This document shows, one piece after another, positions 1,403 through 34,690 of a stretch of DNA of 34,691 nucleotides (position 1 is the stretch's first letter; each line of letters starts with the position of its first letter). The DNA comes from an uncultured virus (IMG/VR IMGVR_UViG_3300032229_000206). Taxonomy: Duplodnaviria > Heunggongvirae > Uroviricota > Caudoviricetes. The notes under the pieces were generated by a model that was not told where the DNA came from, made no database searches, and was given only the letters and a program-made list of their open reading frames with translations. The DNA lies in the IMG/VR virus record IMGVR_UViG_3300032229_000206; one strand, 5' to 3'. The position numbers and the translations under genes are program-made.

Positions 1403-1924
1403 CTAGGATGCGTATTGGGAAAACTGAGGGTCGTTGACCATCTCTTCAGGCATCAACTGAATACATTCTACGCTGAGGATGGTGAACCTGTCTGCCACAA
1501 TGCCACGCTCTTGGATAGCAAACGGGCGATATACCTGACCACGCCAGACCACACGGTCACGGTTGTTAGTATCTGGGCGAAAGATGATGTTAGGAGCAAA
1601 CTTCTGTACATCTTCAATGTTGAAAGTTAAGTGCAAAGTATCAGCGTTGTAGTAACCAACTGCTGAGGTTTTAGCCTCACCCTGCTTAATAACCGCTCTT
1701 ACTACTGGCACTGGGTATGGACCAGTCCAAACCTTGCCACCTACAGAGGATGAGATATCTTGACCAACATCGTAGATAGGGTCTACTGTGGTATTGATTG
1801 CATCAAAAATCCACCACTCAGCATTTGTTCCTACTGGATGCTTTAGGTCTGTGTCAACGCCTTTAAGGATAGCGGTAGTCTCAAAGTCTGCGTCAAAGCG
1901 ACCGCCTGGAGAATGGGCTCTCAT
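1403..1924 (-). CDS. putative head-closure/neck protein
   Basis: 173 aa; the DRVVWRGQVYRP pattern is typical of head-closure beta-barrels; coupled to the GT2 stop. Function is inferred. Confidence 0.5.
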   Translation of the reverse strand: MRAHSPGGRFDADFETTAILKGVDTDLKHPVGTNAEWWIFDAINTTVDPIYDVGQDISSSVGGKVWTGPYPVPVVRAVIKQGEAKTSAVGYYNADTLHLTFNIEDVQKFAPNIIFRPDTNNRDRVVWRGQVYRPFAIQERGIVADRFTILSVECIQLMPEEMVNDPQFSQYAS

Positions 1925-2979
1925 TAGACTCCCTGTTTGTAGAACTCTAGGTTACTAAGTAATCTCTCATCTGTAGGGCTAAGCTCTACCGCCTTTTCCC
2001 CAAACTCAAGCGCTTTCTCTCTTTCGTTTAACCAATAGGCGCATACTGCAGCTAGGTCGTATGGAATAGAACCCCAAGCAAATGCTTCATTTAAATAGTC
2101 TAATTGACGTTCTTTAATATTGATTGCCTTTTTACAGAGTGTGTAGCACTCCGACATGCGGCCTTTGTCATAGTGATATTGAGCTAGCTCTACATAAGCC
2201 TCACGTTTGCCAGGCTCTTCTTGCATAGCTAGCTTCCACCACTTAAGTTTTTCTTCCTCATCAATAGAGCACTTAGCTATATAACGCATAGAAGCGGCAC
2301 GTTCAGCTTTCCATATAGCTTTAGGTAGAGATAGGTGGCGTTCAAACTGAGCCTTGGCTTCTTCTATTTGACCGTGGAAAAATAACTCACGAGCGTAGTA
2401 GTAGGCGTTACGGTCGTTGTGTGGGTCTTCTTCTATTGATAGTTTAAGAAGTGGAAGGTACTGGCTGCGAGACTTACTGTCATCTGCCTTGTGCCATAGC
2501 CCTAGTTGAGACCAATATTCTTTTTCCTCTAAGCGGTCTGTATATAAACACTCATGTACAGGATGTACCCAACGATAGCCGTGGCGGGCGTGAATCTTAT
2601 CCCCACCAAATACTAAGCCAGGTGAGCCATCTGGATTAAAGTTCCATGTGTAGTTGTAGCGAATACGAGTAGTTCCAGCAGGGGCCTTCTCTATCTCTTT
2701 ACGCCAATCAGGTGCTAAAAGCTCATCCATGTCCAAAGAGATGCACATATCAATATCATCTGGGAGTAGGGCAAGAGCCGCATTTCTAGCATCATCAAAC
2801 CGCCATGGTCGTACGCTTATTACATGTACGTTGATTCCTAGAGCACGTGCTTTTTCAACTGTACCATCTATAGAACCAGTATCAGCAATCATTAGGTAGT
2901 CAGCGTCTTTGCAAGACTCATACCAGCGTTCTACGAACTGTTCTTCATTAAGGGCGATAGTGTATACGGCTATTTTCAT
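1924..2979 (-). CDS. family 2 glycosyltransferase with C-terminal TPR repeats
   Basis: IAVYTIALNEE, ADTGSIDGT, FDDARNAAL, SLDMDE (DxD) and VHE motifs, followed by helical TPR-like repeats. Confidence 0.9.
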   Translation of the reverse strand: MKIAVYTIALNEEQFVERWYESCKDADYLMIADTGSIDGTVEKARALGINVHVISVRPWRFDDARNAALALLPDDIDMCISLDMDELLAPDWRKEIEKAPAGTTRIRYNYTWNFNPDGSPGLVFGGDKIHARHGYRWVHPVHECLYTDRLEEKEYWSQLGLWHKADDSKSRSQYLPLLKLSIEEDPHNDRNAYYYARELFFHGQIEEAKAQFERHLSLPKAIWKAERAASMRYIAKCSIDEEEKLKWWKLAMQEEPGKREAYVELAQYHYDKGRMSECYTLCKKAINIKERQLDYLNEAFAWGSIPYDLAAVCAYWLNEREKALEFGEKAVELSPTDERLLSNLEFYKQGV

Positions 2980-11462: not shown

Positions 11463-11876
11463 CTAAATTAACGCTATCGGTGGAATAACGGTTGATGTAA
11501 TTGTTGTTGTTCTGGTTTGAGAGTAACGAGGAAAAAATAGTCCAAGCTCTAGTTGAGCATCCATAACTAATTCTTCACCACGCCCACCATCACCAGCTGG
11601 TCCTGCAACACCTGTAGGTCCACGAAGTCCTGTCGGTCCTGCAACACCATTTACACCAGCGGGTCCAGTAGCGCCATTTGCGCCAGCAGCACCTGCAGGT
11701 CCAGTTGGACCTTGAATACCACTGGCATATACTAACGCATTCCATAAACCTACGCCGTTGCCAACTTTAAATCTTCCAGTGTCTAGTTCAAGACCAAGTT
11801 CACCTTCTGCAAGCAGAGGGTTTGTTGTTGACCATTGCGAAGCTGTTCCGCGACGTAACTGTACTTTAATTGCCAT
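11463..11876 (-). CDS. Mtd N-terminal-like domain plus short collagen repeat
   Basis: VQLRRGTASQW..NPLLAEGELGLELDTGRFKVGNG..W motif followed by about 14 Gly-X-Y triplets. Confidence 0.8.
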   Translation of the reverse strand: MAIKVQLRRGTASQWSTTNPLLAEGELGLELDTGRFKVGNGVGLWNALVYASGIQGPTGPAGAAGANGATGPAGVNGVAGPTGLRGPTGVAGPAGDGGRGEELVMDAQLELGLFFPRYSQTRTTTITSTVIPPIALI

Positions 11877-14701
11877 TACTGAATGACTCCTCCGCTGTCG
11901 ATAACATCTACTCCACCATAATTAGTGGTTGGAGTTCCAGCATCCACGTTAAGTAGTGTAGTGCCTGTAGGGCCTGTTGGACCCAGTAAACCTTGATTTC
12001 CTGTAGGACCAGTTGGTCCTTGAATACCTGTAGGACCTGTTACACCTTGAATACCAGTTAAACCTTGAGGTCCTGTAGGACCTGTATTACCAATAGTTGC
12101 AGCAACAAGAGCTAACCAGTTTGCTGGGTCTTCTAGTGGTGTGATTCCAGCAGTTGAAACATTGTTTCTACGAACATAAGTTCCCTTTAATGTAGGGGTA
12201 TCGTAGAAAACTGCTTGACCTGGAGAGTAAGTAATACCTTGCTGCCAAGTTCCAATAATTGTAAATGGAGCAGCACCTGTAGAACCTGTGGCACCAGTTG
12301 GGCCAGTAGCGCCAGTTAAACCAATAACACCTTGCGCACCTGTAGGACCTGTAGCACCAATTACACCAGTAGGTCCTTGAACAGTTCCAGCGTTAACCCA
12401 CTGAACACCTTGCCAAACATAAAGCTGTCCAGCAATAAGATAGCCATCACCAGTAACACCTGTTGGAACTGCTGATAGAAGTTCAGCAAAGGTATTGAAT
12501 GTTCCTTTGATTTGAAGACCAACACCTTGCGGTCCAGTTGGTCCAGGAACTGTTGATGCAGCACCTGTAGCTCCTGTAGGTCCAACATTTCCTTGGACAC
12601 CTGTAGGACCCTGAATACCTTGTGCACCTGTTGCACCTGTCGGACCTACTGGACCTTGAACACCTTGAATACCTTGTGTACCTTGGTTACCTTGAGCACC
12701 TGTTGGACCAAGTAAACCTTGCGCTCCTTGAGCACCTGTAGCACCCGTAGGTCCTTGAATAAATCCAGCGTTAATCCATGAAGAGCCGCCCCATACAAAG
12801 AGGTTGCCGTTTACAAGATAGCCATCTCCTGTCGCACCAAATGGTTTAGCAGCAACAAGGTCTGCATAACTGTTGTAAGTTCCAAGTACATAAATAGATG
12901 CACCAGCAGCACCAGTTGGTCCCGCTACACCGCTTGCACCTGTCGCACCAGTTGCACCTGCTGCTCCTGGAGCACCAGTAGCACCTGCTGTACCTTGTGG
13001 ACCTTGTGGACCTGTAGCTCCTTGAGCACCAGGAAGACCTGGAATACCTTGTCCACCAGTATTTCCTTGTGGACCAGTAGCACCGACTGCACCTGTAGGA
13101 CCGACAGCTCCTTGTGGACCCGTTGGTCCAATGACTGTAGAAGCTGCACCTGTCGCACCTGTTGGACCTGTTGCACCCTGTGGGCCAGCAGCAGTTAAAG
13201 TAAAGATTGCATTTAAATTAGAGTTGTCTTGAGAAACTACATATAGAGTAGCTGGGCCAGTAAATGGAACATCCCAGAATATGGTTCCAGTTTCAATACC
13301 TAGGTTAGTAAACCCATCTGTGTATTGAGTACCAGCGTTATAAGCGCCTGCTGTTGTTTGTACTCTAAATCTATTTCCAACTGTATTAATAGTTAATCTA
13401 TAGCGAAGACCACGGATAACAGTAATGTTTGGATTTGTTAATCCATTAATAACATAGTTAGGAGTACCGTTAGCGGTTACTGTTAAGTCAATACCGCCTG
13501 ATGTACCAGCAGGACCTGTAGGTCCAGTTACTTGTGACGCTGCACCAGTTGGTCCTAAAGGTCCTGTAGGACCTGTTGGTCCGTCAAGACCAACTTCACC
13601 AGTAGCTGCAAAAATCCAACCAGTGTAAATCTGACCAATATTACCGTTACCGTTATCAACTAAAAGAGTTAAAGTTAATCCGTCATTGCTTATTGTTGCG
13701 TAGCCTTCAATATAAAGGCCTCTATTAGATTGAAGCACTGCACGAACGCGCATACCAGTAACAAAAGCGTGGTCAGCATTGCTAAGTGTAAATGCTTTAG
13801 AACCTCCGCCATATGTAATTGCGGTAGAAGAAGTTACGTTTCCATAACCAACGCCACGAGGTCCTTGACCACCTGTAGGTCCAATAAGACCAATAGGGCC
13901 AGTAGGACCTTGTAAACCTGAAATACCTTGAGGACCTGCAGCACCAGTGTCACCTTTAGGACCAGCTAAACCTGTAGGACCTTGAGTACCTGTAGGTCCA
14001 GTAGAACCTTGTGCACCTTGTGGTCCAACAGGACCAAGCGCTCCTTGCGGACCTGTTGGACCTGTTGGTCCAGCGCTACCAGTTGCACCAGTAGGGCCTT
14101 CTAAGTTTCCAACGTTCTTCCATGCAGAAGTTACAGTGTCCCAAATAACCAAATTACCGTTAGCAAGTAACCAAGCATCGCCAGCAGCTCCAGTTGGACG
14201 TGCAGTTTGCAAAGCAGAAAGAGTTGCATACTCTCCAAGAAGATTTAAACCTTGACCAGGTGCACCAGTAGGTCCTGTAGTTCCAGCTAAACCAGAAATA
14301 CCTTGTGGACCAGTAGGACCAGTTGCTCCAGCATTTCCTTGATTACCTTGTGGGCCTGTCGCACCTGTGCGTCCAGTAGGCCCTGTTGCTCCTGTTGCGC
14401 CAGCAGGTAGTGGGAGCGTGTCAAATACCCAAGCATTATTACTGCGTCGATAAACACGAATATTTGCAGTATCACCTGTGATGCGTACAAACGCCCACTG
14501 ATTAGGTGTAGGTGTTGGGTACGCAGTTGTTAAAGCTGTAAGAGTTGCAAAGGTACCAAGGAACTGTGAAAAATCTCCTTGTGGACCTGTAGGCCCTGTT
14601 GCACCTCTAGGACCTGTAGGCCCGTTTAAAATGCCTGTAGGACCCGTTGGGGTAGGGAACCAGTTGCCATTATCTGGCGGAACAATAATTATATCTGCCA
14701 C
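11876..14701 (-). CDS. collagen-like fibre protein
   Basis: 941 aa; long Gly-X-Y runs (GPT, GAT, GPQ) interrupted by repeated globular modules. Confidence 0.9.
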
Positions 14702-25482: not shown

Positions 25483-26541
25483 TTATGCAGCCCAAGGTGT
25501 GATTGTAATTGTTGCTGTTGAAAGAACATTTGCTGTTGCTGCTGCAACTGACTGTGTTCTGATTGTTCCAGCTGCACCAGTTAGGCGTGTGCCAGGTGTG
25601 ATAGCGCCTGTGTTGGCAACTGTCCATCCTGTACCTGCGATAACAAGTGTGCTTCCTGAACCACCAGTTACAACCCAAGTACCAACAAGTGCTGTTGGGA
25701 TACCTGTACCAGCGGCGATAGTAACCTTTGTGCCTACTGGCCATGAGGTTGTTCCGCCAGCTACTGTGACTGTTGCTGCTGTAGTAGCAGTTACGTTAAT
25801 CTGAGTTGGCTGTGTAGCTGTATTAGTTGCGCCAGCTGCTGTAGTGATGTTAGCTGCTTCGTAACCAGCGTCCTTAAGCTCGTCAAGGGCTAGTGCTGTT
25901 GTCTCACCAACTACTGAAGGTACTACGATGAATGTGATTCCAGCGCCATCATAAGCTGTAAGAGCGTTTGTTGCCTGAACCTTGCCGTACCACTGTCCTG
26001 TAATTTCACCAGCGTTAGCTGCGTTAGTTACTGTGAACTTTAGTGCGTCTGCTGAAGCAACTGTTGCTGAAGACAGGTTGTAAGCTGAAGCTGTAAGACC
26101 TGTGATGTTAACAGTATCTCCTACTGCAAGCTTGTTCTGTGATGTGTATGTAACAGTTGTGCCGTTACCTGAAGCCGCTGTAATCATGTAGTTACCTGCG
26201 CCTGGTAGGAATGATGGATAATCGTTCCATTCAGCTTCTGCTACTGTGTGGTTGTTGCTAGTTGCAGGGGTTAGACGTGCGCTTGGGTATTCTGAGTACC
26301 CGTTCCAGTTGTAGTTCTGGTTTGCGTTTGCTGCTACTGGAGTAGTTGCTGCTCCGTCTGTGCGCTCGTCGTTTGGCTGCATAGGGTAGTTACCCCATAC
26401 GAAATCTACTCGGACGTTTCCTGCTGAATCGGTAGAGTTACCGACGTTGTTCGTTCCAGCTGCGTTGTTACCAATAGCAATGGCGTAAGCGCCTGTGCCC
26501 TGGTCTGAACCCACTGGTAGTGGTGAGTTATAGCTTGACAT
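25483..26541 (-). CDS. Thr/Ala-rich virion protein with interrupted PASTA-like domain
   Basis: VVPSVVGETTALALDELKDAGY ... GTIRTQSVAA..ATITIT halves flank a beta-rich insert. Confidence 0.6.
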   Translation of the reverse strand: MSSYNSPLPVGSDQGTGAYAIAIGNNAAGTNNVGNSTDSAGNVRVDFVWGNYPMQPNDERTDGAATTPVAANANQNYNWNGYSEYPSARLTPATSNNHTVAEAEWNDYPSFLPGAGNYMITAASGNGTTVTYTSQNKLAVGDTVNITGLTASAYNLSSATVASADALKFTVTNAANAGEITGQWYGKVQATNALTAYDGAGITFIVVPSVVGETTALALDELKDAGYEAANITTAAGATNTATQPTQINVTATTAATVTVAGGTTSWPVGTKVTIAAGTGIPTALVGTWVVTGGSGSTLVIAGTGWTVANTGAITPGTRLTGAAGTIRTQSVAAATANVLSTATITITPWAA

Positions 26542-26615
26542 TGTTTACCTTTTCTCTAGAGAAGTAATTACGCCTGATATCGGGGGCGCTGGCTACTATT
26601 CTCCAAGAGGAACCT

Positions 26616-27542
26616 TTATTTGTCTTTGTATAGTGGCTTTACGTAATCTAAGCCCTTAAATTGGACTCCTGACTCCTTCTCAAGCCTTTGGTACCTAGTT
26701 AAATCATTAAGGCCGTACTCACCAAGATATTCTCCATCAAACAGAGCCTGCAGCCTTTTTCTTGCGGCTTTATCAAAGTCTATCCATGTGTTTTCATCAT
26801 CGTTCCATATAAAATGCCTGCGCCCATTTACTCTGTCATAGTTAGTCCAAAGAAAATTGCAAGGTAAAGAGGCTAAAACTACCCCCGCAACATATGCTCG
26901 GACTCCAAGAGATATCTCCTCTCCTAAAAAGAAAAGATTTGGGTCATAAGGGATTTTTAACATAGATTTTGCACTGCCAAAAACACAATTAGCAGCAAAC
27001 CCGTATGACCTATCACCAAACTCAATATCTTCTAATGGTTCCCAATCTAAAAGATAAAGACTTTCTTCTTCTTTCCAAAAAGGAGATGCTTTAAAAAATG
27101 TATCTTCTAAAAATAAATTATCGCGTGGGTTACTAGGGTCAGTCCAATCTATTAAAAATCCATGGGGGTATTTTGTAAACAAGTAATCTTCACCCCATTT
27201 AACTTTACATCTAACGTAATGAGAGATAACTAGCTCGTCCCATCGACTTTGTGCTCTTGAATGGGAGTCTGTTTGTAAAAAATACTTATACTTTTCAGAT
27301 AATAAAGAATTTGCTATATGCCTACCATTACATGCCCCAAGAGCTAACCTGTAATCTATGCGATTATAGTTTATTTGATTATCAGGTATAAAAGATAAAT
27401 CTAATGGATTATCTAAATCTTCGTGAGAAACTATAGAAAAATAAAGATTTTCTGGATATACAGCATGTTCATAAAAGCTTTTAACCGTATTTACTAGGTC
27501 TGGGTCTCTATAAGCAGATAAGCTTATAAAAATCTTGTCCAA
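26616..27542 (-). CDS. GT60 / GlcNAc-transferase family glycosyltransferase (Skp1-Hyp Gnt1-like)
   Basis: IFISLSAYRDPDL, GACNGRH, YFLQTDSHSR (DSH) and PYDPNLFFLGEEISLGVRAY motifs characteristic of the family; TTG start 1 nt after the oxygenase stop. Confidence 0.85.
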   Translation of the reverse strand: MDKIFISLSAYRDPDLVNTVKSFYEHAVYPENLYFSIVSHEDLDNPLDLSFIPDNQINYNRIDYRLALGACNGRHIANSLLSEKYKYFLQTDSHSRAQSRWDELVISHYVRCKVKWGEDYLFTKYPHGFLIDWTDPSNPRDNLFLEDTFFKASPFWKEEESLYLLDWEPLEDIEFGDRSYGFAANCVFGSAKSMLKIPYDPNLFFLGEEISLGVRAYVAGVVLASLPCNFLWTNYDRVNGRRHFIWNDDENTWIDFDKAARKRLQALFDGEYLGEYGLNDLTRYQRLEKESGVQFKGLDYVKPLYKDK

Positions 27543-27543
27543 T

Positions 27544-28161
27544 TTACTCGAACCAGTTAACTACGGTGTAGCGGGTACCTTCTGTGACTGGGTATATCTT
27601 GTGGTTATAGACGTAGTTGGCAGCAAACAAAATAGCCATATTGGCCTTGGGTTTAACTTTAAGGCCAAAACGTGGGAACTCAATCTCTCCACCCTCATAG
27701 TCATCATTTAGATAGTAAGAAATAGAAAAAGTTCTAGGAATACCTTTGTTATCATCTATATGGTTTTCAAAATGGTGGCCTTTACCATATTTTAAGATTT
27801 GCCAGTTTTCACCAGTAGCATAGGCCAAGCATCCGTGAGCAGCAGCATAGTCTTTAATAGTTGGGTTCAAAAGTTCATTTAAAAGGTCGTGAATCATCAA
27901 TCCTGTACCAGGAAGGTGATTTCTTAAGTCTGGGTTTCTATCAAAAGCATGCAAACCAATTGTTTCAACAACTCTTATTTGTGTGTCAACTTTATAAGAG
28001 CTAGTAGTTGTATCTGCAATATCTCCAACAGTTCCAAGATTCCAAGTAAGGTTTTTAATTTCTACAAGACCTTCAATGTCATTAATAAAACCTTGTGGGT
28101 CTTCTATTACATCGTAATATGCCCAAATACCTGGAGCTAATTCTTCTTTTTTAAATTCCAT
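27544..28161 (-). CDS. 2OG-Fe(II) oxygenase, prolyl 4-hydroxylase-like
   Basis: QILKY..G..F..HID (HxD), YLNDDYEGGEIEF and H-KIYPVTEG-T-RY; start MEFKK with TAATG coupling. Confidence 0.9.
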   Translation of the reverse strand: MEFKKEELAPGIWAYYDVIEDPQGFINDIEGLVEIKNLTWNLGTVGDIADTTTSSYKVDTQIRVVETIGLHAFDRNPDLRNHLPGTGLMIHDLLNELLNPTIKDYAAAHGCLAYATGENWQILKYGKGHHFENHIDDNKGIPRTFSISYYLNDDYEGGEIEFPRFGLKVKPKANMAILFAANYVYNHKIYPVTEGTRYTVVNWFE

Positions 28162-28442
28162 TATGCTTCTACCTCTACTTGACCCCATTTATGAAGTGGA
28201 CACTCGGCTTTAGCTAATTTTGACTTTTCTGGCATAAAACAGCCGCATTTTTTACACTGTTTAGTAATTTTAATTAATTCTGGGCAAGATAAGCACATAT
28301 CATATCTGGTTTTGTGAATTTCATCAGATACTCGGTCTACATTAGGGTTTACTAAGTCCCATGGACGTGTTTCACCAAGGTTTTTCTTCCATCTTTGCCA
28401 TGGAGTTAGGCCATCATCAAAGTTGTTGTCCATAGTTGTCAT
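28161..28442 (-). CDS. Cys-rich small protein (DUF6171-like)
   Basis: R...CLSCP...QCKKCGCFM..K......CPLHKW pattern. Confidence 0.75.
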   Translation of the reverse strand: MTTMDNNFDDGLTPWQRWKKNLGETRPWDLVNPNVDRVSDEIHKTRYDMCLSCPELIKITKQCKKCGCFMPEKSKLAKAECPLHKWGQVEVEA

Positions 28443-28452
28443 TTAATGCTCC

Positions 28453-28665
28453 TTACTCTTTTGGTCGTATAAATCCTATACCATCATGACGCCAGCCTTC
28501 GCCAATATCTTGGTCGGGCATGAACTCAACAACTTGAGGGTTAGAAGCCATACCAGCTAGAATCATTTGAAATCTTGCTGGGTCCATATTTTCTGGGTCT
28601 GTATCGTCAAAAGACATAACCATAAAAACGTCACCTTCGGCAACAAAGGCAAACTTTCTTTCCAT
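28453..28665 (-). CDS. small acidic protein, possible fibre chaperone
   Basis: 70 aa; KFAFV...GWRHDG.GF resembles the 3433-3726 product, which also follows a fibre gene. Confidence 0.6.
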   Translation of the reverse strand: MERKFAFVAEGDVFMVMSFDDTDPENMDPARFQMILAGMASNPQVVEFMPDQDIGEGWRHDGIGFIRPKE

Positions 28666-28697: not shown

Positions 28698-29978
28698 CTA
28701 GAACAAACACCCACCTCTACGCCAGATTCCACCAAATTCTACACAACGGAAACGAGCATAGCTACTTGAGTCTGTGCCTACAACACTAGGTGTTGGAGTA
28801 GGTGTTGGAGTAGGTGTTGGAGTAGGTGTTGGCGTAGGAACAGGTCCTCCGCCGCCTCCACTTGTAACGCATTGGCAAAACCCGTTAGTATTTACCCAAG
28901 TACCAAAGCATGGTCCTTGACAGTTACCAGAGCAGCTATTAGTACACTGACAGCAACCGCCGCAAACAAGGCCTGTACAAGCGCCAGCACAGTTATATGT
29001 TCCTGTATAACCGCAACCTCCTGAGTAAGTTCCGCAAACTTGACCCGATAGAGGGCTACAAGGAACTACAGTTCCACCACCACCACCACCACCAACGGTA
29101 ACCCCACAATTAGTAAGTGTTCCACCGCTTCTAGTGATTTCTGCGCCTTTTCCACCATTAAGAAGGTTAGTTCCATCAGAACATACCTGTCCCAATTGTT
29201 GATAATAAACAGTGTAAGTATAGGGACTAACGCATATATCTTCTTGAATGTTATATCCAGCTAGAACTTGGATACCACTACAAGTAACTCCGCCCCCTCC
29301 TCCTCCTCCACCTCCACCTACCGTAGGTTGAGGTGTAGGGGTTGGAGCAACATATTGCGTAATAGTAATTAAATTAGAGGTAGTAGAGGCTTGTCCTAAT
29401 CCGTTTTCATTTCTTGCAGCAACGTTAAAATTATACTGAGAACCAAGAGTTAACCCAGAAAAAGTGTAGGTAGTAGAGGCGTTGCCTGTTTCTACAGTTG
29501 CACCAATATTAGGGGTAATAAGATAGCTAGTAATTGCTTTTCCACCATTTGCAGGGGCGGTCCAAGAAAGGCTAGCTCCACCACCATTTGTTGAATCTGT
29601 GGCTCCAGCAGAGGTAACTCTTCCAGGAACAGTAGTAGAAGTTCCTGGACCAAACTCAGATGAATCAGCTGAGTTATAAACAGCATTTCTAGCTCTAATT
29701 TTAAATCTATAGCTTTTTCCAGATTTTAAACCAGTAATAACAAAAGGAGCTGTGCTATTTAATGTTTGAGTAACGGTATCTGAATTATCGGTGGCGGTAG
29801 CGGTAAGAACATAGTCAATAATTGGAAGCTTGCCTGTAAAAGGGGTGTCTTGAAACGTTAAAGAGTTTGCTCCATTATCAAAAGCTCTACCAGAACCAGA
29901 ATCAGACTGCGAAACTACCAAAGGTGGTAGTGGTGGCTGCTTTTTCTGAGAGTCAGATATTCCCAGTGGTAATGGCAT
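28698..29978 (-). CDS. FN3-domain protein with Cys/Gly-rich C-terminus and (PT)n linkers
   Basis: Two FN3 repeats (ITGLKSGKSYRFKIRARN; LSWTAPANGGKAITSY..GLTLGSQYNFNVAARN), followed by poly-Gly, many Cys and PTPTPT tracts. Confidence 0.85.
   Translation of the reverse strand: MPLPLGISDSQKKQPPLPPLVVSQSDSGSGRAFDNGANSLTFQDTPFTGKLPIIDYVLTATATDNSDTVTQTLNSTAPFVITGLKSGKSYRFKIRARNAVYNSADSSEFGPGTSTTVPGRVTSAGATDSTNGGGASLSWTAPANGGKAITSYLITPNIGATVETGNASTTYTFSGLTLGSQYNFNVAARNENGLGQASTTSNLITITQYVAPTPTPQPTVGGGGGGGGGGVTCSGIQVLAGYNIQEDICVSPYTYTVYYQQLGQVCSDGTNLLNGGKGAEITRSGGTLTNCGVTVGGGGGGGTVVPCSPLSGQVCGTYSGGCGYTGTYNCAGACTGLVCGGCCQCTNSCSGNCQGPCFGTWVNTNGFCQCVTSGGGGGPVPTPTPTPTPTPTPTPTPSVVGTDSSSYARFRCVEFGGIWRRGGCLF
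28788..28835. repeat. 4 x 12-bp tandem repeat (AGGTGTTGGAGT) encoding (TP)n
   Basis: Three exact copies and one with a single mismatch. Confidence 0.9.
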
Positions 29979-30760
29979 TAAACACTCAAATCGCCTGATA
30001 GGAACCAGGTGTTATTTGCAATCTTCAATAATGAAGCTGCAGACCATTGAGCGCGAAGAATCAAACCTGGAGTTGCGTTTACGCTTGCTGGAGAGGTGCC
30101 TACAAAACTTACAGCACCAGCAGCTCCGCGAATAAAGTCAATACGAGAACCAACTGGAAAAGCAATTGAATCTGTTGGAACAGTTACAACTACTGGTGCA
30201 GAGGTGTTTACTAAGAAAAATACTTTGTTTTTATCAGCTAAAGCTAATGTAAAGTTTTGATTTTTTTGCTCTACAACGCTATCGGCAGGAACAGCAGATA
30301 CAGAACCTTGGATATTAGCAGCTAGCGTCTTTCCTGTATATGTGCCATCTGGCTGTACTGCAGCTTGAATAACTCCAATAGAATCTTGCCACTCTTGAAG
30401 GTTTACAGCCTGGTTTAGCGCTCCACGAACAATAATTCCGCGGTTATTGATATCACCTGTATCAATTCGGTTGGCGTTAGCTCCGTCAGCTGTTTTACGC
30501 AGGTATTGAGTGTGAGAATCAGCAATAACGCCGTTTTCTATATTAGCAAGGCGAGCGCTTACAGTTCCATAAGATACGGCAGCGGCATTAAACGCAACGC
30601 TTGAATTGGCAGCAGACGAAAGATTTGGGTTAGTACCTAGGATAGTCTGGACAGCCACAACCTCTTCTTGAAGAGTATTTGGGTGAGACGCATCGATAGT
30701 ATCAGTGACGTTTGCCTTAGTAGTAAAGACTCGTACGGAGCCAGGATATGTTGCTGCCAT
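29978..30760 (-). CDS. virion structural/fibre protein
   Basis: 260 aa; ASHPNTLQEEVVAVQ N-terminal anchor; FTLALADKNK..VTVP...FPVGSRI..LRAQWSAASLLK...W.LSGDL C-terminal module. Confidence 0.75.
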   Translation of the reverse strand: MAATYPGSVRVFTTKANVTDTIDASHPNTLQEEVVAVQTILGTNPNLSSAANSSVAFNAAAVSYGTVSARLANIENGVIADSHTQYLRKTADGANANRIDTGDINNRGIIVRGALNQAVNLQEWQDSIGVIQAAVQPDGTYTGKTLAANIQGSVSAVPADSVVEQKNQNFTLALADKNKVFFLVNTSAPVVVTVPTDSIAFPVGSRIDFIRGAAGAVSFVGTSPASVNATPGLILRAQWSAASLLKIANNTWFLSGDLSV

Positions 30761-32718: not shown

Positions 32719-32888
32719 TATTCCTCATCTTTCGGGTTTCGTAGTGGGTAGGTGATAGCCCATGCAATCAAAGTAGCAATGATTGCGTACCCAACGACTG
32801 TTTTTGCTGAACCGTCTAGTACAACCCAAGCAATGAACATGCCAAGCAGTGTCCATAGCTGGTCAATCATGTCTCTAATTACTCTCAT
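32718..32888 (-). CDS. two-TM membrane microprotein (56 aa)
   Basis: MRVIRDMIDQLWTLLGMFIAWVVLDGSAKTVVGYAIIATLIAWAITYPLRNPKDEE; ATGA and TAATG overlaps. Confidence 0.8.
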   Translation of the reverse strand: MRVIRDMIDQLWTLLGMFIAWVVLDGSAKTVVGYAIIATLIAWAITYPLRNPKDEE

Positions 32889-34690
32889 GGCTTACGTCTC
32901 CTAACGCCTTTTGATTCGCCAGAGGCGCCTCCGCCTCCAGAACTTCCTCCACCGCTTGAACCACCAGTGCTTCCACCAGCGGCACCTGCTGCTGCACCAA
33001 CTGCGTTCATAGCAGCGCCTGCAGCTACAACGGCAGCAACTACCATTTCTGTTGCTTCTTCACGTTCTTCGGGGGACATATCAGCACCAATACTTCCAAG
33101 TGCTTGCAGGGCTTGACCAGGGTCATCAAATATTGCGCCAATTAACTCCGCAGGGTTCTCTAGTAGCACGAGAGCCGCGGCAACGTCTGCTGTAATTATA
33201 ACCTCGTTACCGTTTTCATCCTGCCTAACCTCAACAGGAGTATCAGCTGGAAGGTCCTTATACTCAATTCCAGCGTCCTGAATCTGTTCTTTTGTTAAGG
33301 TCTCACCTGGGGCTACAGACTCAATAAGAGCAGTAGCAACTAGGTCTTTCTCAGCCTCGCTAAGCTTGCCGTCTTCATTTAGGGCATCAACTAAAGCTGA
33401 TACCTCTTCAGCGGTAACTTCGCCATCCGCGTTTAAGGCATCCATAACATCTTCAGCATCAGCAGCAGTTAGGTTGCCGTCAGACAAAACGTCTTCTACC
33501 GCATTATCTACAGCTTCCTCTTCTGTAACAACTACTTCCTCTTCAGGGCTAGCGACTTCTTCTTCAGTTGTGATATCCTCTGGGGATGATTCTTCTGACG
33601 GATTTTCTGGCTCTGTTTCTGGTAACTCTGGTTGTACTTCTTCTTCCACGGGTGTTTCGACTTCCGCAGGAGGCTCCTCAGGTGTTACGGGTGGCTCTTC
33701 GGGCTCTACCTCTGGTTGTGGCTCTTCTGTGGGTTCTGATGGCGTTTCTGTATCAGGGTCAGGCTCAGTAGATGGATTTTCAGAATCTGTCGGAGGAAGA
33801 GTGGTTGGCTCATCGACAGAAGGAGACTCTGGAGTTTCTGGACTTACAGGCTCAGTTGGCGTTGAAGAAGAAGCATTTGCTTGAGCAGCAGCTTCAGCAG
33901 CAGCCTGAGCAGCAGCAGCCGCAGCCTGTTGAGCCGCTAGTAGCGCAGCAGCCTGAGCCTCCGCTTCAATACGAGAGTTCGTACTGGACACCACAGGAGC
34001 GATAGCTTCAGCTTTTACAATTGCAGTATCTGCTAATTGATTAGCTGTTGTTAAAGCGCTATTCTGCGCTGATTGGAGGTTACCTAATGTTTGAGTTTCT
34101 GCTGTTAATGTGGTCTGAGCAGTTGCAAGTGCTGTCTCTGTTACTTGTTTCACTTCTGTCTTATCTATAACAACTGCTTCTGCTACAGGCACAGCAGCAA
34201 CTGCTGTAGCAGCAGCAGCAACTAATGCTGGGTCTTGAGTAGTTGTTGTATGTGATAAGTACTCAGCGCCTACGCCAGTATGAATACCGCTATGTTGCCA
34301 AGCTAAGTGTAGTGTTGCACCACCACCATTTTCGTAATACCACACTGTAATATCTTTTGTTCTGTCATTAGTAAAATCAAGCCAATTACTAGCAAGACTC
34401 CAAGTAGGTCCTTGGTCCCTCCAGTTATTAACTACTAATTCATTATCTATGTAGATTCTGGCGCCATCATCCGATAATACTATGAATCTGATGGTGTTCA
34501 CATTTTCTGGTGCGGTAACCTGTCCTTCATAGGTAACAATTACATCCTCTGAACGATTAGAGCCAGCAACGTTACCGCTTCCCCAGTTTTCATTAATACC
34601 ATTAGTGTCAACTGCTGTGTGGATAGGTGTTGCTCCTTGTGGTAATACTGGAGCATTATTTTGACCTTGAACGTTATAAACCTTTACAAC
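32885..34690 (-). CDS. PA14-domain protein with Ala-rich coil and acidic Pro/Glu stalk; 5' end lies outside the window
   Basis: The frame stays open beyond the track start to the right edge; INENWGSG...SDDGARIYID...WYYENGGGA.L.L.W PA14 motifs; hydrophobic segment plus RRRKP at the C-terminus. Confidence 0.85.
   Translation of the reverse strand, partial: VVKVYNVQGQNNAPVLPQGATPIHTAVDTNGINENWGSGNVAGSNRSEDVIVTYEGQVTAPENVNTIRFIVLSDDGARIYIDNELVVNNWRDQGPTWSLASNWLDFTNDRTKDITVWYYENGGGATLHLAWQHSGIHTGVGAEYLSHTTTTQDPALVAAAATAVAAVPVAEAVVIDKTEVKQVTETALATAQTTLTAETQTLGNLQSAQNSALTTANQLADTAIVKAEAIAPVVSSTNSRIEAEAQAAALLAAQQAAAAAAQAAAEAAAQANASSSTPTEPVSPETPESPSVDEPTTLPPTDSENPSTEPDPDTETPSEPTEEPQPEVEPEEPPVTPEEPPAEVETPVEEEVQPELPETEPENPSEESSPEDITTEEEVASPEEEVVVTEEEAVDNAVEDVLSDGNLTAADAEDVMDALNADGEVTAEEVSALVDALNEDGKLSEAEKDLVATALIESVAPGETLTKEQIQDAGIEYKDLPADTPVEVRQDENGNEVIITADVAAALVLLENPAELIGAIFDDPGQALQALGSIGADMSPEEREEATEMVVAAVVAAGAAMNAVGAAAGAAGGSTGGSSGGGSSGGGGASGESKGVRRRKP

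Follow-up and report, generated by a model that had tools for sequence, protein, structure and literature searches.

Enzymes of the glycosyltransferase family GT60 act in two kinds of protein modification. In the Skp1 pathway of Dictyostelium and Toxoplasma, the GT60 member Gnt1 adds alpha-linked N-acetylglucosamine (GlcNAc) to hydroxyproline (Hyp) of Skp1 after the action of the prolyl hydroxylase PhyA (PMC6939170). The family also includes Ser/Thr-specific mucin-type polypeptide alpha-GlcNAc-transferases of Dictyostelium and T. cruzi, which are related to family GT27 and share as a GT60 trait that the C-terminal lectin domain of GT27 enzymes is missing (PMC8724618). Here, we analysed positions 26,616-28,161 of a stretch of 34,691 nt (hereafter the window) from the uncultured virus IMGVR_UViG_3300032229_000206 (Caudoviricetes), in which a prolyl-4-hydroxylase (P4H)-type Fe(II)/2-oxoglutarate (2OG) oxygenase and a GT60-type glycosyltransferase (GT) are encoded next to each other. 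The original prediction made for this DNA had read the pair as a Skp1-like pathway in which prolines of phage fibres are hydroxylated and then glycosylated. This interpretation is partly supported by our results: judged from gene neighbourhoods, the link between the two enzymes is real but facultative, and the enzymes quite possibly decorate the linkers of an adjacent fibre separately.

GT27 polypeptide N-acetylgalactosamine (GalNAc)-transferases start mucin-type O-glycosylation on Ser/Thr, and P4Hs of viruses and bacteria act on Pro-rich repeats or collagen-like peptides. In the animal enzyme LH3/PLOD3, a multifunctional lysyl hydroxylase and glycosyltransferase of collagen located in the endoplasmic reticulum, a PF13640-related oxygenase is joined to a glycosyltransferase and the two act sequentially, on Lys, on a repetitive structural protein. 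As for phages, Freeman and colleagues reportedly described, in Cell Host Microbe in 2023, mycobacteriophage glycosyltransferases that are encoded among structural genes and glycosylate the phage's own virion proteins; these enzymes are said to belong to other GT families and to target C-terminal extensions of capsid and tail-tube proteins. Phage genomes, those of cyanophages above all, carry many genes annotated as '2OG-Fe(II) oxygenase' or 'prolyl hydroxylase' without an assigned substrate, and in the literature we found neither a hydroxylase-GT system of the present kind in phages nor a description of a GT60/PF11397 protein glycosyltransferase in phages.

Organisation of the cassette

According to the listing of open reading frames (ORFs), the minus strand carries all genes of the region. 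A single base lies between the oxygenase stop codon TAA (27546-27544) and the TTG start of the GT (27542), which confirms the spacing of 1 nt given in the original prediction, and the stop of the preceding gene, which encodes a DUF6171-like protein, overlaps the oxygenase ATG (TAATG at 28163-28159); both junctions were read directly. The oxygenase frame has a further ATG at 28188, within the coding region of the gene before it; relatives begin at the position of 28161. Because of the TAATG overlap and the gap of a single nucleotide, the four genes between 28665 and 26616 (s70, DUF6171-like gene, oxygenase and GT) can be read as a translationally coupled cassette. The features to which we refer are the following.

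29978-30760, minus strand: tail-fibre-like protein, first in transcription order, with matches to phrog tail families
28698-29978, minus strand: ORF of a modular fibre protein of 426 aa with two FN3 domains (fn3, E 1.8e-19)
28453-28665, minus strand: first cassette gene, 's70', encoding 70 aa, without a family match
28161-28442, minus strand: DUF6171-like small protein, 93 aa (PF19668 below cut-off; phrog_13558, E 7.6e-15)
27544-28161, minus strand: P4H-type Fe(II)/2OG oxygenase, 205 aa (PF13640; ATG start at 28161)
26616-27542, minus strand: GT60-type polypeptide glycosyltransferase, 308 aa (PF11397; TTG start)
26550-26611, no strand: conserved intergenic element right after the GT stop, marking the edge of a GT indel
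25483-26541, minus strand: ORF downstream of the GT, encoding a protein of 352 aa that is Thr-rich by composition (16.8% Thr) and without a known family
11876-14701, minus strand: collagen-like protein of 941 aa, rich in G-P-T and G-P-Q triplets (PF01391, E 6.2e-51, eight stretches)

The GC content of the DUF6171-like, oxygenase and GT genes is 0.35-0.38, below the 0.447 of the window and the 0.44-0.49 of the flanking genes; this low GC fits an exchangeable accessory cassette and suggests horizontal transfer. A nucleotide search of deposited phages with the oxygenase-GT pair gave no match, and neither the GT nor the oxygenase family was found in the record nearest to the window, a 16-kb fragment (G001). 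Scanning 38 window ORFs with Pfam, a set that does not include all ORFs below 90 aa outside the module, gave no match to a Skp1-type family.

The two enzymes and their relatives

The GT matches PF11397 ('GlcNAc') with an E-value of 1.4e-33 (117.3 bits, cut-off 21) and the glycosyltransferase family phrog_24687 with an E-value of 2.5e-30, and PF11397 is present in all 60 GT relatives examined. The motifs SAYRD (residues 9-13), QTDSH (90-94) and GEE (207-209), on which the GT60 assignment had originally been based, are in place, and Y11, D13, D92, H94, G207, E208 and E209 are invariant across 19 relatives; we take D92-S-H94 to be the D-x-H metal motif. PF11397 is the single Pfam domain within the 308 aa, without a ricin-type lectin domain. 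At sequence level, the GT profile had no significant match among solved structures (best E 0.17); for the AlphaFold model (pLDDT 91.2), the Foldseek matches listed through rank 48 were all GT27 polypeptide GalNAc-transferases (E 4e-11 to 1.7e-8), with 13-18% identity in the structural alignments. Family match, GT27-related GT-A fold, D-x-H motif and missing lectin domain together place the enzyme in GT60.

Family membership does not tell whether the acceptor is Hyp or Thr, because GT60 holds both kinds of enzyme. The resemblance to mucin-type initiation by protist GT60 and animal GT27 enzymes, seen in the Pfam family, the predicted fold, the D92-S-H94 motif and the lacking lectin domain, extends to the candidate acceptors, which are dense Thr/Pro repeats. 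In contrast to these enzymes, the phage GT would work in the cytoplasm and not in the Golgi, its identity to GT27 is low (see above), and it is paired with a small Cys-rich protein.

A second glycosyltransferase gene was noted in the structural region of the window (1924-2979, minus strand, 351 aa), in whose product TPR repeats come after a GT2 domain (PF00535, E 2.6e-6); it closes the large fibre block, and its product could extend a glycan or modify another virion protein. On a different phage contig, a cytochrome P450 gene (PF00067, E 5.4e-48; L046:7171-8409, minus strand) lies near a GT60 relative.

The oxygenase matches PF13640 (2OG-FeII_Oxy_3; E 3.5e-16, 60.4 bits, cut-off 27) and phrog_61 (E 3.8e-28), so that both Pfam families named in the original prediction are found above their curated cut-offs. 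NCBIfam yielded only sub-threshold 'Fe2+-dependent dioxygenase' matches for the oxygenase and none for the other proteins searched. The expected HxD...H...R residues (H134-x-D136, H187 and R197) are in place; among 19 relatives, H134 and H187 are invariant, D136 is nearly so and position 197 is R or K. HxD...H presumably forms the iron triad, and the basic residue about ten positions after the distal His presumably binds 2OG. Using a profile of the 19 phage relatives against the Protein Data Bank (PDB), the P4H of B. anthracis (3itq) ranked first (2.3e-14) and that of chlorovirus PBCV-1 (5c5t) next (6.2e-8), followed by PiuC-type enzymes (6e-7), P3H1 (3.9e-6) and LH3 (4.3e-6). By profile comparison, the closest characterised relatives of the phage oxygenase are therefore prolyl hydroxylases, ahead of other 2OG oxygenases. 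Like the PBCV-1 and B. anthracis enzymes (5c5t; 3itq and 5hv0), its best solved relatives, it is a short, single-domain protein with an HxD...H triad, although the E-values are modest, the identity is low, and the phage enzyme, unlike them, is coupled to a DUF6171-like protein and often to a second oxygenase and a GT. Matches to the window oxygenase were present in 401 deposited phage records.

In relatives of the cassette, a second oxygenase family, overlooked in the original prediction and here called oxyL3, substitutes for the P4H-like one. Its members, found in the relatives only, comprise 182-197 aa with one weak Pfam match at most, and H88, D90 and H138 (H-x-D...H) are invariant. Neither an hhalign comparison to the PF13640 group (no profile similarity, probability 0.2%) nor a sequence search of the PDB (best E 0.94) revealed a relationship, and all Foldseek matches listed for the oxyL3 model (pLDDT 85.4) were Fe/2OG dioxygenases (SptF, AlkB, SnoN/K and PHD2; E about 1e-7, TM 0.53-0.73). 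Based on this model, oxyL3 is predicted to adopt the double-stranded beta-helix fold of Fe(II)/2OG dioxygenases, a relation visible by fold only.

PF13640 is present in several copies in some relatives (contigs of 33.7, 25 and 116 kb have 8, 7 and 5 matches, respectively), the window having one copy; because paralogues are abundant in such multi-copy genomes, some of the oxygenase adjacency there could be due to chance. Arrays of PF13640 paralogues were observed in the contigs of L004 and L012 (G021, G022) and of L026 (G016), the last of which also has 8 matches to the second oxygenase family. An ORF located just upstream of two oxygenase genes (L022:1-573, plus strand) gave sub-threshold Hint/intein-type matches (Intein_splicing, 5.3e-6; PT-HINT, 2.2e-4).

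Association of the two genes across phage loci

IMG/VR holds at least 571 loci with a GT relative, of which the best 79 were examined. Their GTs, together with those of the window and of two deposited jumbo-phage relatives, formed 51 clusters at 90% identity, 49 of them from IMG/VR or the window, and the gene contexts of this GT-centred set were tallied from a six-frame HMM map. An oxygenase was found within 1.5 kb and on the same strand in 20 of the 49 clusters and a DUF6171-like gene within 1.5 kb in 23; 17 clusters had both, six had the DUF6171-like gene only, and three had the oxygenase only (two at a contig end, the third with the DUF gene just past 1.5 kb). As 30 related contigs totalling 1.27 Mb contain 27 PF13640 matches, or one in about 47 kb, the proximity of oxygenase and GT in 20/49 clusters is above chance. 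Moreover, the maximum-likelihood tree places the window GT in a well-supported clade of 12 rows in which a 2OG oxygenase adjoins the GT in 12/12, six being of the PF13640 type and six of the second family, interleaved on the tree. Gene orders among relatives include oxy-oxy-DUF-GT, oxy-GT-DUF and DUF-GT-oxy. Since the oxygenase is kept through rearrangement and replaced by an analogous enzyme, these patterns argue for a functional tie beyond inherited synteny.

A reciprocal, oxygenase-centred scan (at least 610 loci; best 80, forming 58 clusters) speaks against obligate pairing, as no more than 10 of the 50 clusters that could be evaluated had a GT in the 4-kb flank. In the same set, the gene immediately preceding the oxygenase was DUF6171-like in 46 of 53 clusters. 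The locus most closely related to the window, L165 (81% amino acid identity of the oxygenase, 79-82% identity of the flanking DNA), has the order 70-aa gene, DUF6171, oxygenase and Thr-rich protein, with exactly the GT missing. In L165, a mere 29 nt stand in place of segment 27542-26612 of the window, and the 62-nt element that follows the window GT stop shares 92% identity with the sequence behind the L165 oxygenase, which defines a clean GT indel. The converse situation is also encountered: GTs of loci without an oxygenase are 57-69% identical to those of oxygenase-bearing loci, the window GT being 61% identical to its own nearest relative, and G003 (81% complete), G009 (84%), G029 (99%) and several shorter contigs gave no match to either oxygenase family when searched over their whole length.

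Taken together, the reciprocal count, the GT indel in L165 and the GT-only contigs indicate, at the level of gene content, that the link between GT and oxygenase, though real, is facultative and that the enzymes come and go independently. The co-occurrence foreseen in the original prediction thus holds for the clade of the window GT, for the 20/49 clusters and for the bacterial fusion proteins described below, but not for the closest relative of the window, the reciprocal scan or the GT-only contigs.

Proline-rich fibre linkers as candidate substrates

The modular fibre protein encoded just upstream of the cassette (28698-29978) combines its two FN3 domains with poly-Gly runs, 20 Cys and a small Cys-containing tip, and carries (PT)n linkers before the tip (APTPTPQPT at 211 and PVPTPTPTPTPTPTPTPTPS at 379); in relatives, the cassette is likewise preceded by homologous fibres that have (PT)n linkers. 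Linkers were flagged with a crude detector as stretches of at least 16 residues with no more than three residue types and at least 25% Pro. By this measure, the ORF immediately preceding the cassette contains a Pro-rich periodic linker in 38 of the 48 oxygenase-centred clusters that could be evaluated, compared to 0 of 57 clusters in the downstream-ORF control. The (PT)n FN3 protein that had been singled out as an obvious substrate is real, as is the GPT-rich collagen in the window, and its position makes the adjacent fibre the best candidate for a substrate.

Upstream linkers are of the types (PT)n, (VTP)n, (PPVT)n and (PTPPS)n and, without Thr, (PVAA)n, (PAPVA)n and (PPFF)n. Because Pro is the common denominator of these linkers, including the Thr-less ones, they provide the best indirect evidence that the oxygenase may hydroxylate linker Pro. 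Some of the periodic linkers next to a DUF6171-oxygenase pair are unusual, namely (PPFF)n, (PVAA)n, (PAPVA)n and (PPVV)n in L177, L196, L199, L202 and L243.

Regarding the GT, the oxygenase-centred set contains this gene with 7 of 32 Pro+Thr/Ser linkers and with 0 of 6 Thr-less Pro linkers, both low counts. Wherever an upstream fibre of an oxygenase-bearing cluster in the GT-centred set had a flagged linker (14 clusters), this linker was of the (PT)n type, and in seven more clusters no linker was seen (contig ends, or none flagged in L080/81). Among oxygenase-less GT clusters, poly-Thr linkers are found in L057/58 and L061 and poly-Gly linkers in L028 and L047-52/L077. The absence of the GT from Thr-less Pro linkers and its presence with poly-Thr fibres lacking an oxygenase favour Thr as its acceptor. 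A general rule by which linker chemistry dictates the enzyme set was rejected, since exceptions occur both ways (L165, and Pro-Thr fibres with either enzyme alone).

The Thr-rich protein downstream of the GT probably serves in host binding or as a further fibre, and it could be a second substrate. Its homologues come after the cassette in L019-L021, L024 and L165, the L021 copy having a PASTA domain (E 3.1e-8).

A small cysteine-rich protein accompanies both enzymes

The steadiest partner of both enzymes is the DUF6171-like protein, which the original prediction had overlooked and on whose family nothing was found in the literature. The window protein matches PF19668 below the cut-off of 27 (21.7 bits, E 2.6e-4), orthologues in L014, L015, L028 and L055 reach 30.7-33.3 bits, and the neighbouring atlas clusters, mostly viral as a family, carry the name DUF6171 (score 0.95). 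The alignment shows conservation over the full length, with six invariant Cys (C-x2-C-x9-C-x2-C-G-C-x12-C-P), invariant P27, P82, K73 and K85 and nearly invariant T60 and T74. Judged from this pattern, the protein is probably an accessory subunit of the zinc-ribbon type. It accompanies either enzyme singly or both together, and in L027 and L039 it is fused as a domain to the N-terminus of the GT; we infer that it may serve as an accessory or targeting subunit shared by the two enzymes. A complex prediction for the GT with the DUF6171-like protein (score 0.00, mark 0.32), made without controls, counts neither for nor against binding. For the first cassette gene, s70, searches of Pfam, PHROG and NCBIfam came back empty; in many loci a copy of it immediately precedes the DUF6171-like gene, and in L054/L055 it is part of a fusion with the GT.

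DUF6171 matches were obtained in 68 deposited phage records. In the cyanophage Sf-FS3, the DUF6171 gene stands immediately before a gene annotated as prolyl 4-hydroxylase, which is followed by genes for another 2OG dioxygenase and for sugar-nucleotide enzymes. This larger form of the cassette, observed in L163 (Synechococcus phage Sf-FS3, PV340856.1 183681-187657) and in L032:2318-6888, comprises DUF6171, the P4H-like oxygenase, a second 2OG oxygenase, an NAD-dependent dehydratase, a methyltransferase and an epimerase, followed in L032 by the GT60 gene; the dehydratase, methyltransferase and epimerase suggest on-site synthesis of an unusual nucleotide sugar.

Bacterial relatives and fusion proteins

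A collection of species-level genomes contained 164 GT relatives, of which the best 80 loci were examined. A PF13640-like ORF lay within 5 kb of the GT relative at 13 of these 80 loci; eight of the 13 are alphaproteobacterial metagenome-assembled genomes (MAGs), seven of them labelled Rickettsiales. PF11397 and PF13640 are also found in single polypeptides, as checked for three ORFs (L109, 621 aa; L145, 625 aa; L084, 1709 aa), and both domains are present in 16 of the 120 listed GT relatives longer than 549 aa. Such fusions indicate that the two families often work in one pathway. The same logic is seen in LH3/PLOD3, which differs from the phage system in its GT family, in its action on Lys and not Pro and in being an animal ER enzyme; in the phages, in contrast, the two activities are separate genes, either of which can be lost by itself.

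The L084 fusion contains three GT60 units, an AhpC/TSA module and two oxygenase domains. Giant bacterial proteins of this kind, in which 3-7 GT60 units in tandem are combined with PF13640 oxygenase domains and a peroxiredoxin-like AhpC/TSA module, were noted in a Rickettsiales MAG (L084:3924-9053, plus strand) and in similar form in L087, L089, L091, L098, L099 and L112, the architecture being confirmed by Pfam for L084 only.

Proposed function and alternative explanations

We propose that the four genes between 28665 and 26616 could constitute an accessory, horizontally exchanged cassette for the decoration of fibre linkers, expressed together with the fibre gene just upstream. The P4H-type oxygenase would hydroxylate prolines of periodic Pro-rich fibre linkers, (PT)n in the window phage, and the GT60-type enzyme, as a cytoplasmic polypeptide O-glycosyltransferase, would add a HexNAc-type sugar to the same linkers, most likely on Thr in the mucin-type manner; in phages that have the oxygenase, Hyp might serve as acceptor instead of Thr or besides it. 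The six-Cys DUF6171-like protein would act as an accessory or targeting subunit for whichever modifying enzymes are present, and the likely benefit would be linkers between the fibre modules that are stiffer, protease-resistant or antigenically masked. Central to this proposal is that Pro hydroxylation and Thr-type O-glycosylation would be two independent linker decorations arranged around DUF6171 and not an obligate relay. The L165 indel, the GT-only loci and the reciprocal count favour such separable decorations over a relay, and we consider this account, in which substrate, donor and acceptor residue are deduced from gene content and family membership, a tentative one with a good chance of being correct, though not yet a probable one. 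From the reported mycobacteriophage system, the cassette would differ by its hydroxylase, its DUF6171 partner and its fibre linkers.

Several observations weigh against this proposal. Six oxygenase-less GT clusters have Pro-Thr fibres (L027, L039, L054/55, L068, L078 and L079), many (VTP)n or (PT)n fibres are accompanied by the oxygenase without the GT, and in 10 of the 48 evaluable oxygenase clusters the detector found no Pro-rich linker. L165 is among the latter, its linker being (GTTV)n with only a short additional TPTTPSTPT stretch. More distant GT relatives occur in DNA-metabolism contexts or next to Gly-rich fibres, Stenotrophomonas phage Moby has DUF6171 with neither enzyme annotated nearby, and the bacterial fusions are explained equally well or better by sequential action on one residue (Hyp), in the manner of LH3 or Skp1. 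In addition, the loci are phylogenetically related, which makes the counts descriptive and not a tally of independent events, and the contigs are mostly fragments, in which 'absent' denotes absent from the available part.

In a more far-reaching form, the cassette would amount to eukaryote-like hydroxyproline-rich-glycoprotein chemistry on phage receptor-binding fibres, with linker Pro converted to Hyp, Hyp and/or Thr glycosylated by the GT60 enzyme and the enzymes recruited by DUF6171, the whole being a mix-and-match toolkit exchanged as a cassette; we regard this version as speculative and rather unlikely. The position of the cassette behind Pro-linker fibres offers a concrete substrate hypothesis for one large group of phage oxygenases and links it to a protein glycosyltransferase family. 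If the proposal were true, fibre stiffness, protease resistance, host recognition and antigenicity would be affected, known virion modifications would extend past the mycobacteriophage case, and Hyp or mucin-type chemistry, usually seen as eukaryotic, would be widespread in bacterial viruses and, through the fusions, in bacteria.

An obligate relay of the Skp1 or extensin type, in which 4-hydroxyproline is formed in the (PT)n linkers and the GT60 enzyme then places GlcNAc on that Hyp, would agree with the presence and translational coupling of both families, with the oxygenase standing beside every GT of the window clade and with the occurrence of Pro in the linkers of all seven evaluable GT+oxygenase clusters with a flagged linker. 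It would also find precedents in the bacterial PF11397+PF13640 fusions, in LH3 as a fused hydroxylase-glycosyltransferase acting on one residue, and in Gnt1, the GT60 member that is Hyp-specific and dependent on PhyA (PMC6939170). On the other hand, the family likewise holds Ser/Thr-specific mucin-type enzymes (PMC8724618), and the nearest folds of the GT model are Ser/Thr-specific GalNAc-transferases. L165 has the oxygenase and lacks the GT alone, GT relatives of 57-69% identity do without a detectable oxygenase, including that of G003 and those with poly-Thr fibres, and a GT within 4 kb is the exception in the oxygenase-centred set (10/50). As an obligate relay, the hydroxylate-then-glycosylate pathway of the original prediction is not borne out by these data, and we deem it unlikely, if still worth considering. 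With the Skp1 pathway, the phage system shares the two families (PF13640-type P4H and PF11397/GT60) and the cytoplasmic, soluble nature of the enzymes; it differs in that its candidate substrate is a repetitive fibre linker and not a single Pro, in that one enzyme occurs without the other in close relatives, and in that the DUF6171 partner and the second oxygenase family are without a counterpart there.

The true substrate of the oxygenase could instead be the collagen-like protein encoded at 11876-14701, as proposed for the P4H of Bacillus anthracis, with the GT acting independently. This B. anthracis collagen-type enzyme is the best solved relative of the phage oxygenase (2.3e-14), the window does encode 941 aa of collagen-like sequence, in which GPT, GPQ and GAT triplets are broken by globular inserts, and among 30 contigs searched a PF01391 match was present in 11 of the 14 having an oxygenase of either family. 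However, G014 (72% complete) contains the cassette without a collagen match, G029 (99% complete) contains six collagen matches without an oxygenase, and the collagen gene of the window is 13 kb away from the oxygenase, whereas Pro-linker fibres are consistently adjacent. Collagen being neither necessary nor sufficient for the oxygenase across contigs, we rejected it as the primary substrate. That it is the true target in place of the fibre appears distinctly unlikely, but fibre linkers and collagen are not mutually exclusive, and the collagen-like protein may be an additional substrate.

It is also conceivable, though we think it very unlikely, that the enzymes act not on the fibre but on the DUF6171-like or 70-aa protein, in the manner of an operon of a precursor and its tailoring enzymes, or on a host protein. 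A conserved small ORF overlapping or just upstream of the enzymes is indeed a constant feature (46/53 and 23/49 clusters), the DUF6171 protein offers invariant Pro and Lys and near-invariant Thr positions, and DUF6171 and P4H-like pairs occur in cyanophages such as Sf-FS3 away from obvious fibre genes. Full-length conservation and six invariant Cys, in contrast, point to a folded metal-binding domain and not to a variable core peptide, the fusion of DUF6171 to the GT in L027 and L039 is that of a domain, and the position of the cassette after Pro-linker fibres is highly non-random (38/48 versus 0/57).

Highly improbable, finally, is a non-protein acceptor of the GT (host envelope glycan, lipid carrier or DNA) with only incidental fibre adjacency, since PF11397/GT60 and the nearest GT27 folds are polypeptide transferases and the GT is fixed behind fibre genes and beside DUF6171 within the window clades, even though distant GT relatives (about 28-32% identity) lie in nucleotide-metabolism contexts among dCMP deaminase, ThyX and ribonucleotide reductase (RNR) genes and, in a protein search of deposited phages with the GT, the only matches were four jumbo Xanthomonas/Stenotrophomonas phages in which a carbamoyl transferase, not an oxygenase, stands beside the GT relative.

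Other features of the window

After the 941-aa collagen-like gene, the window encodes a 137-aa protein with an Mtd_N (major tropism determinant N-terminal) domain and collagen, the two genes spanning 11463-14701 on the minus strand. A further ORF (32885-34690, minus strand), running off the end of the window, encodes a PA14 domain (E 6.9e-7), after which come long low-complexity stretches, Ala-rich as well as acidic and rich in Pro, Glu and Thr, and a tail of Gly and Ser.

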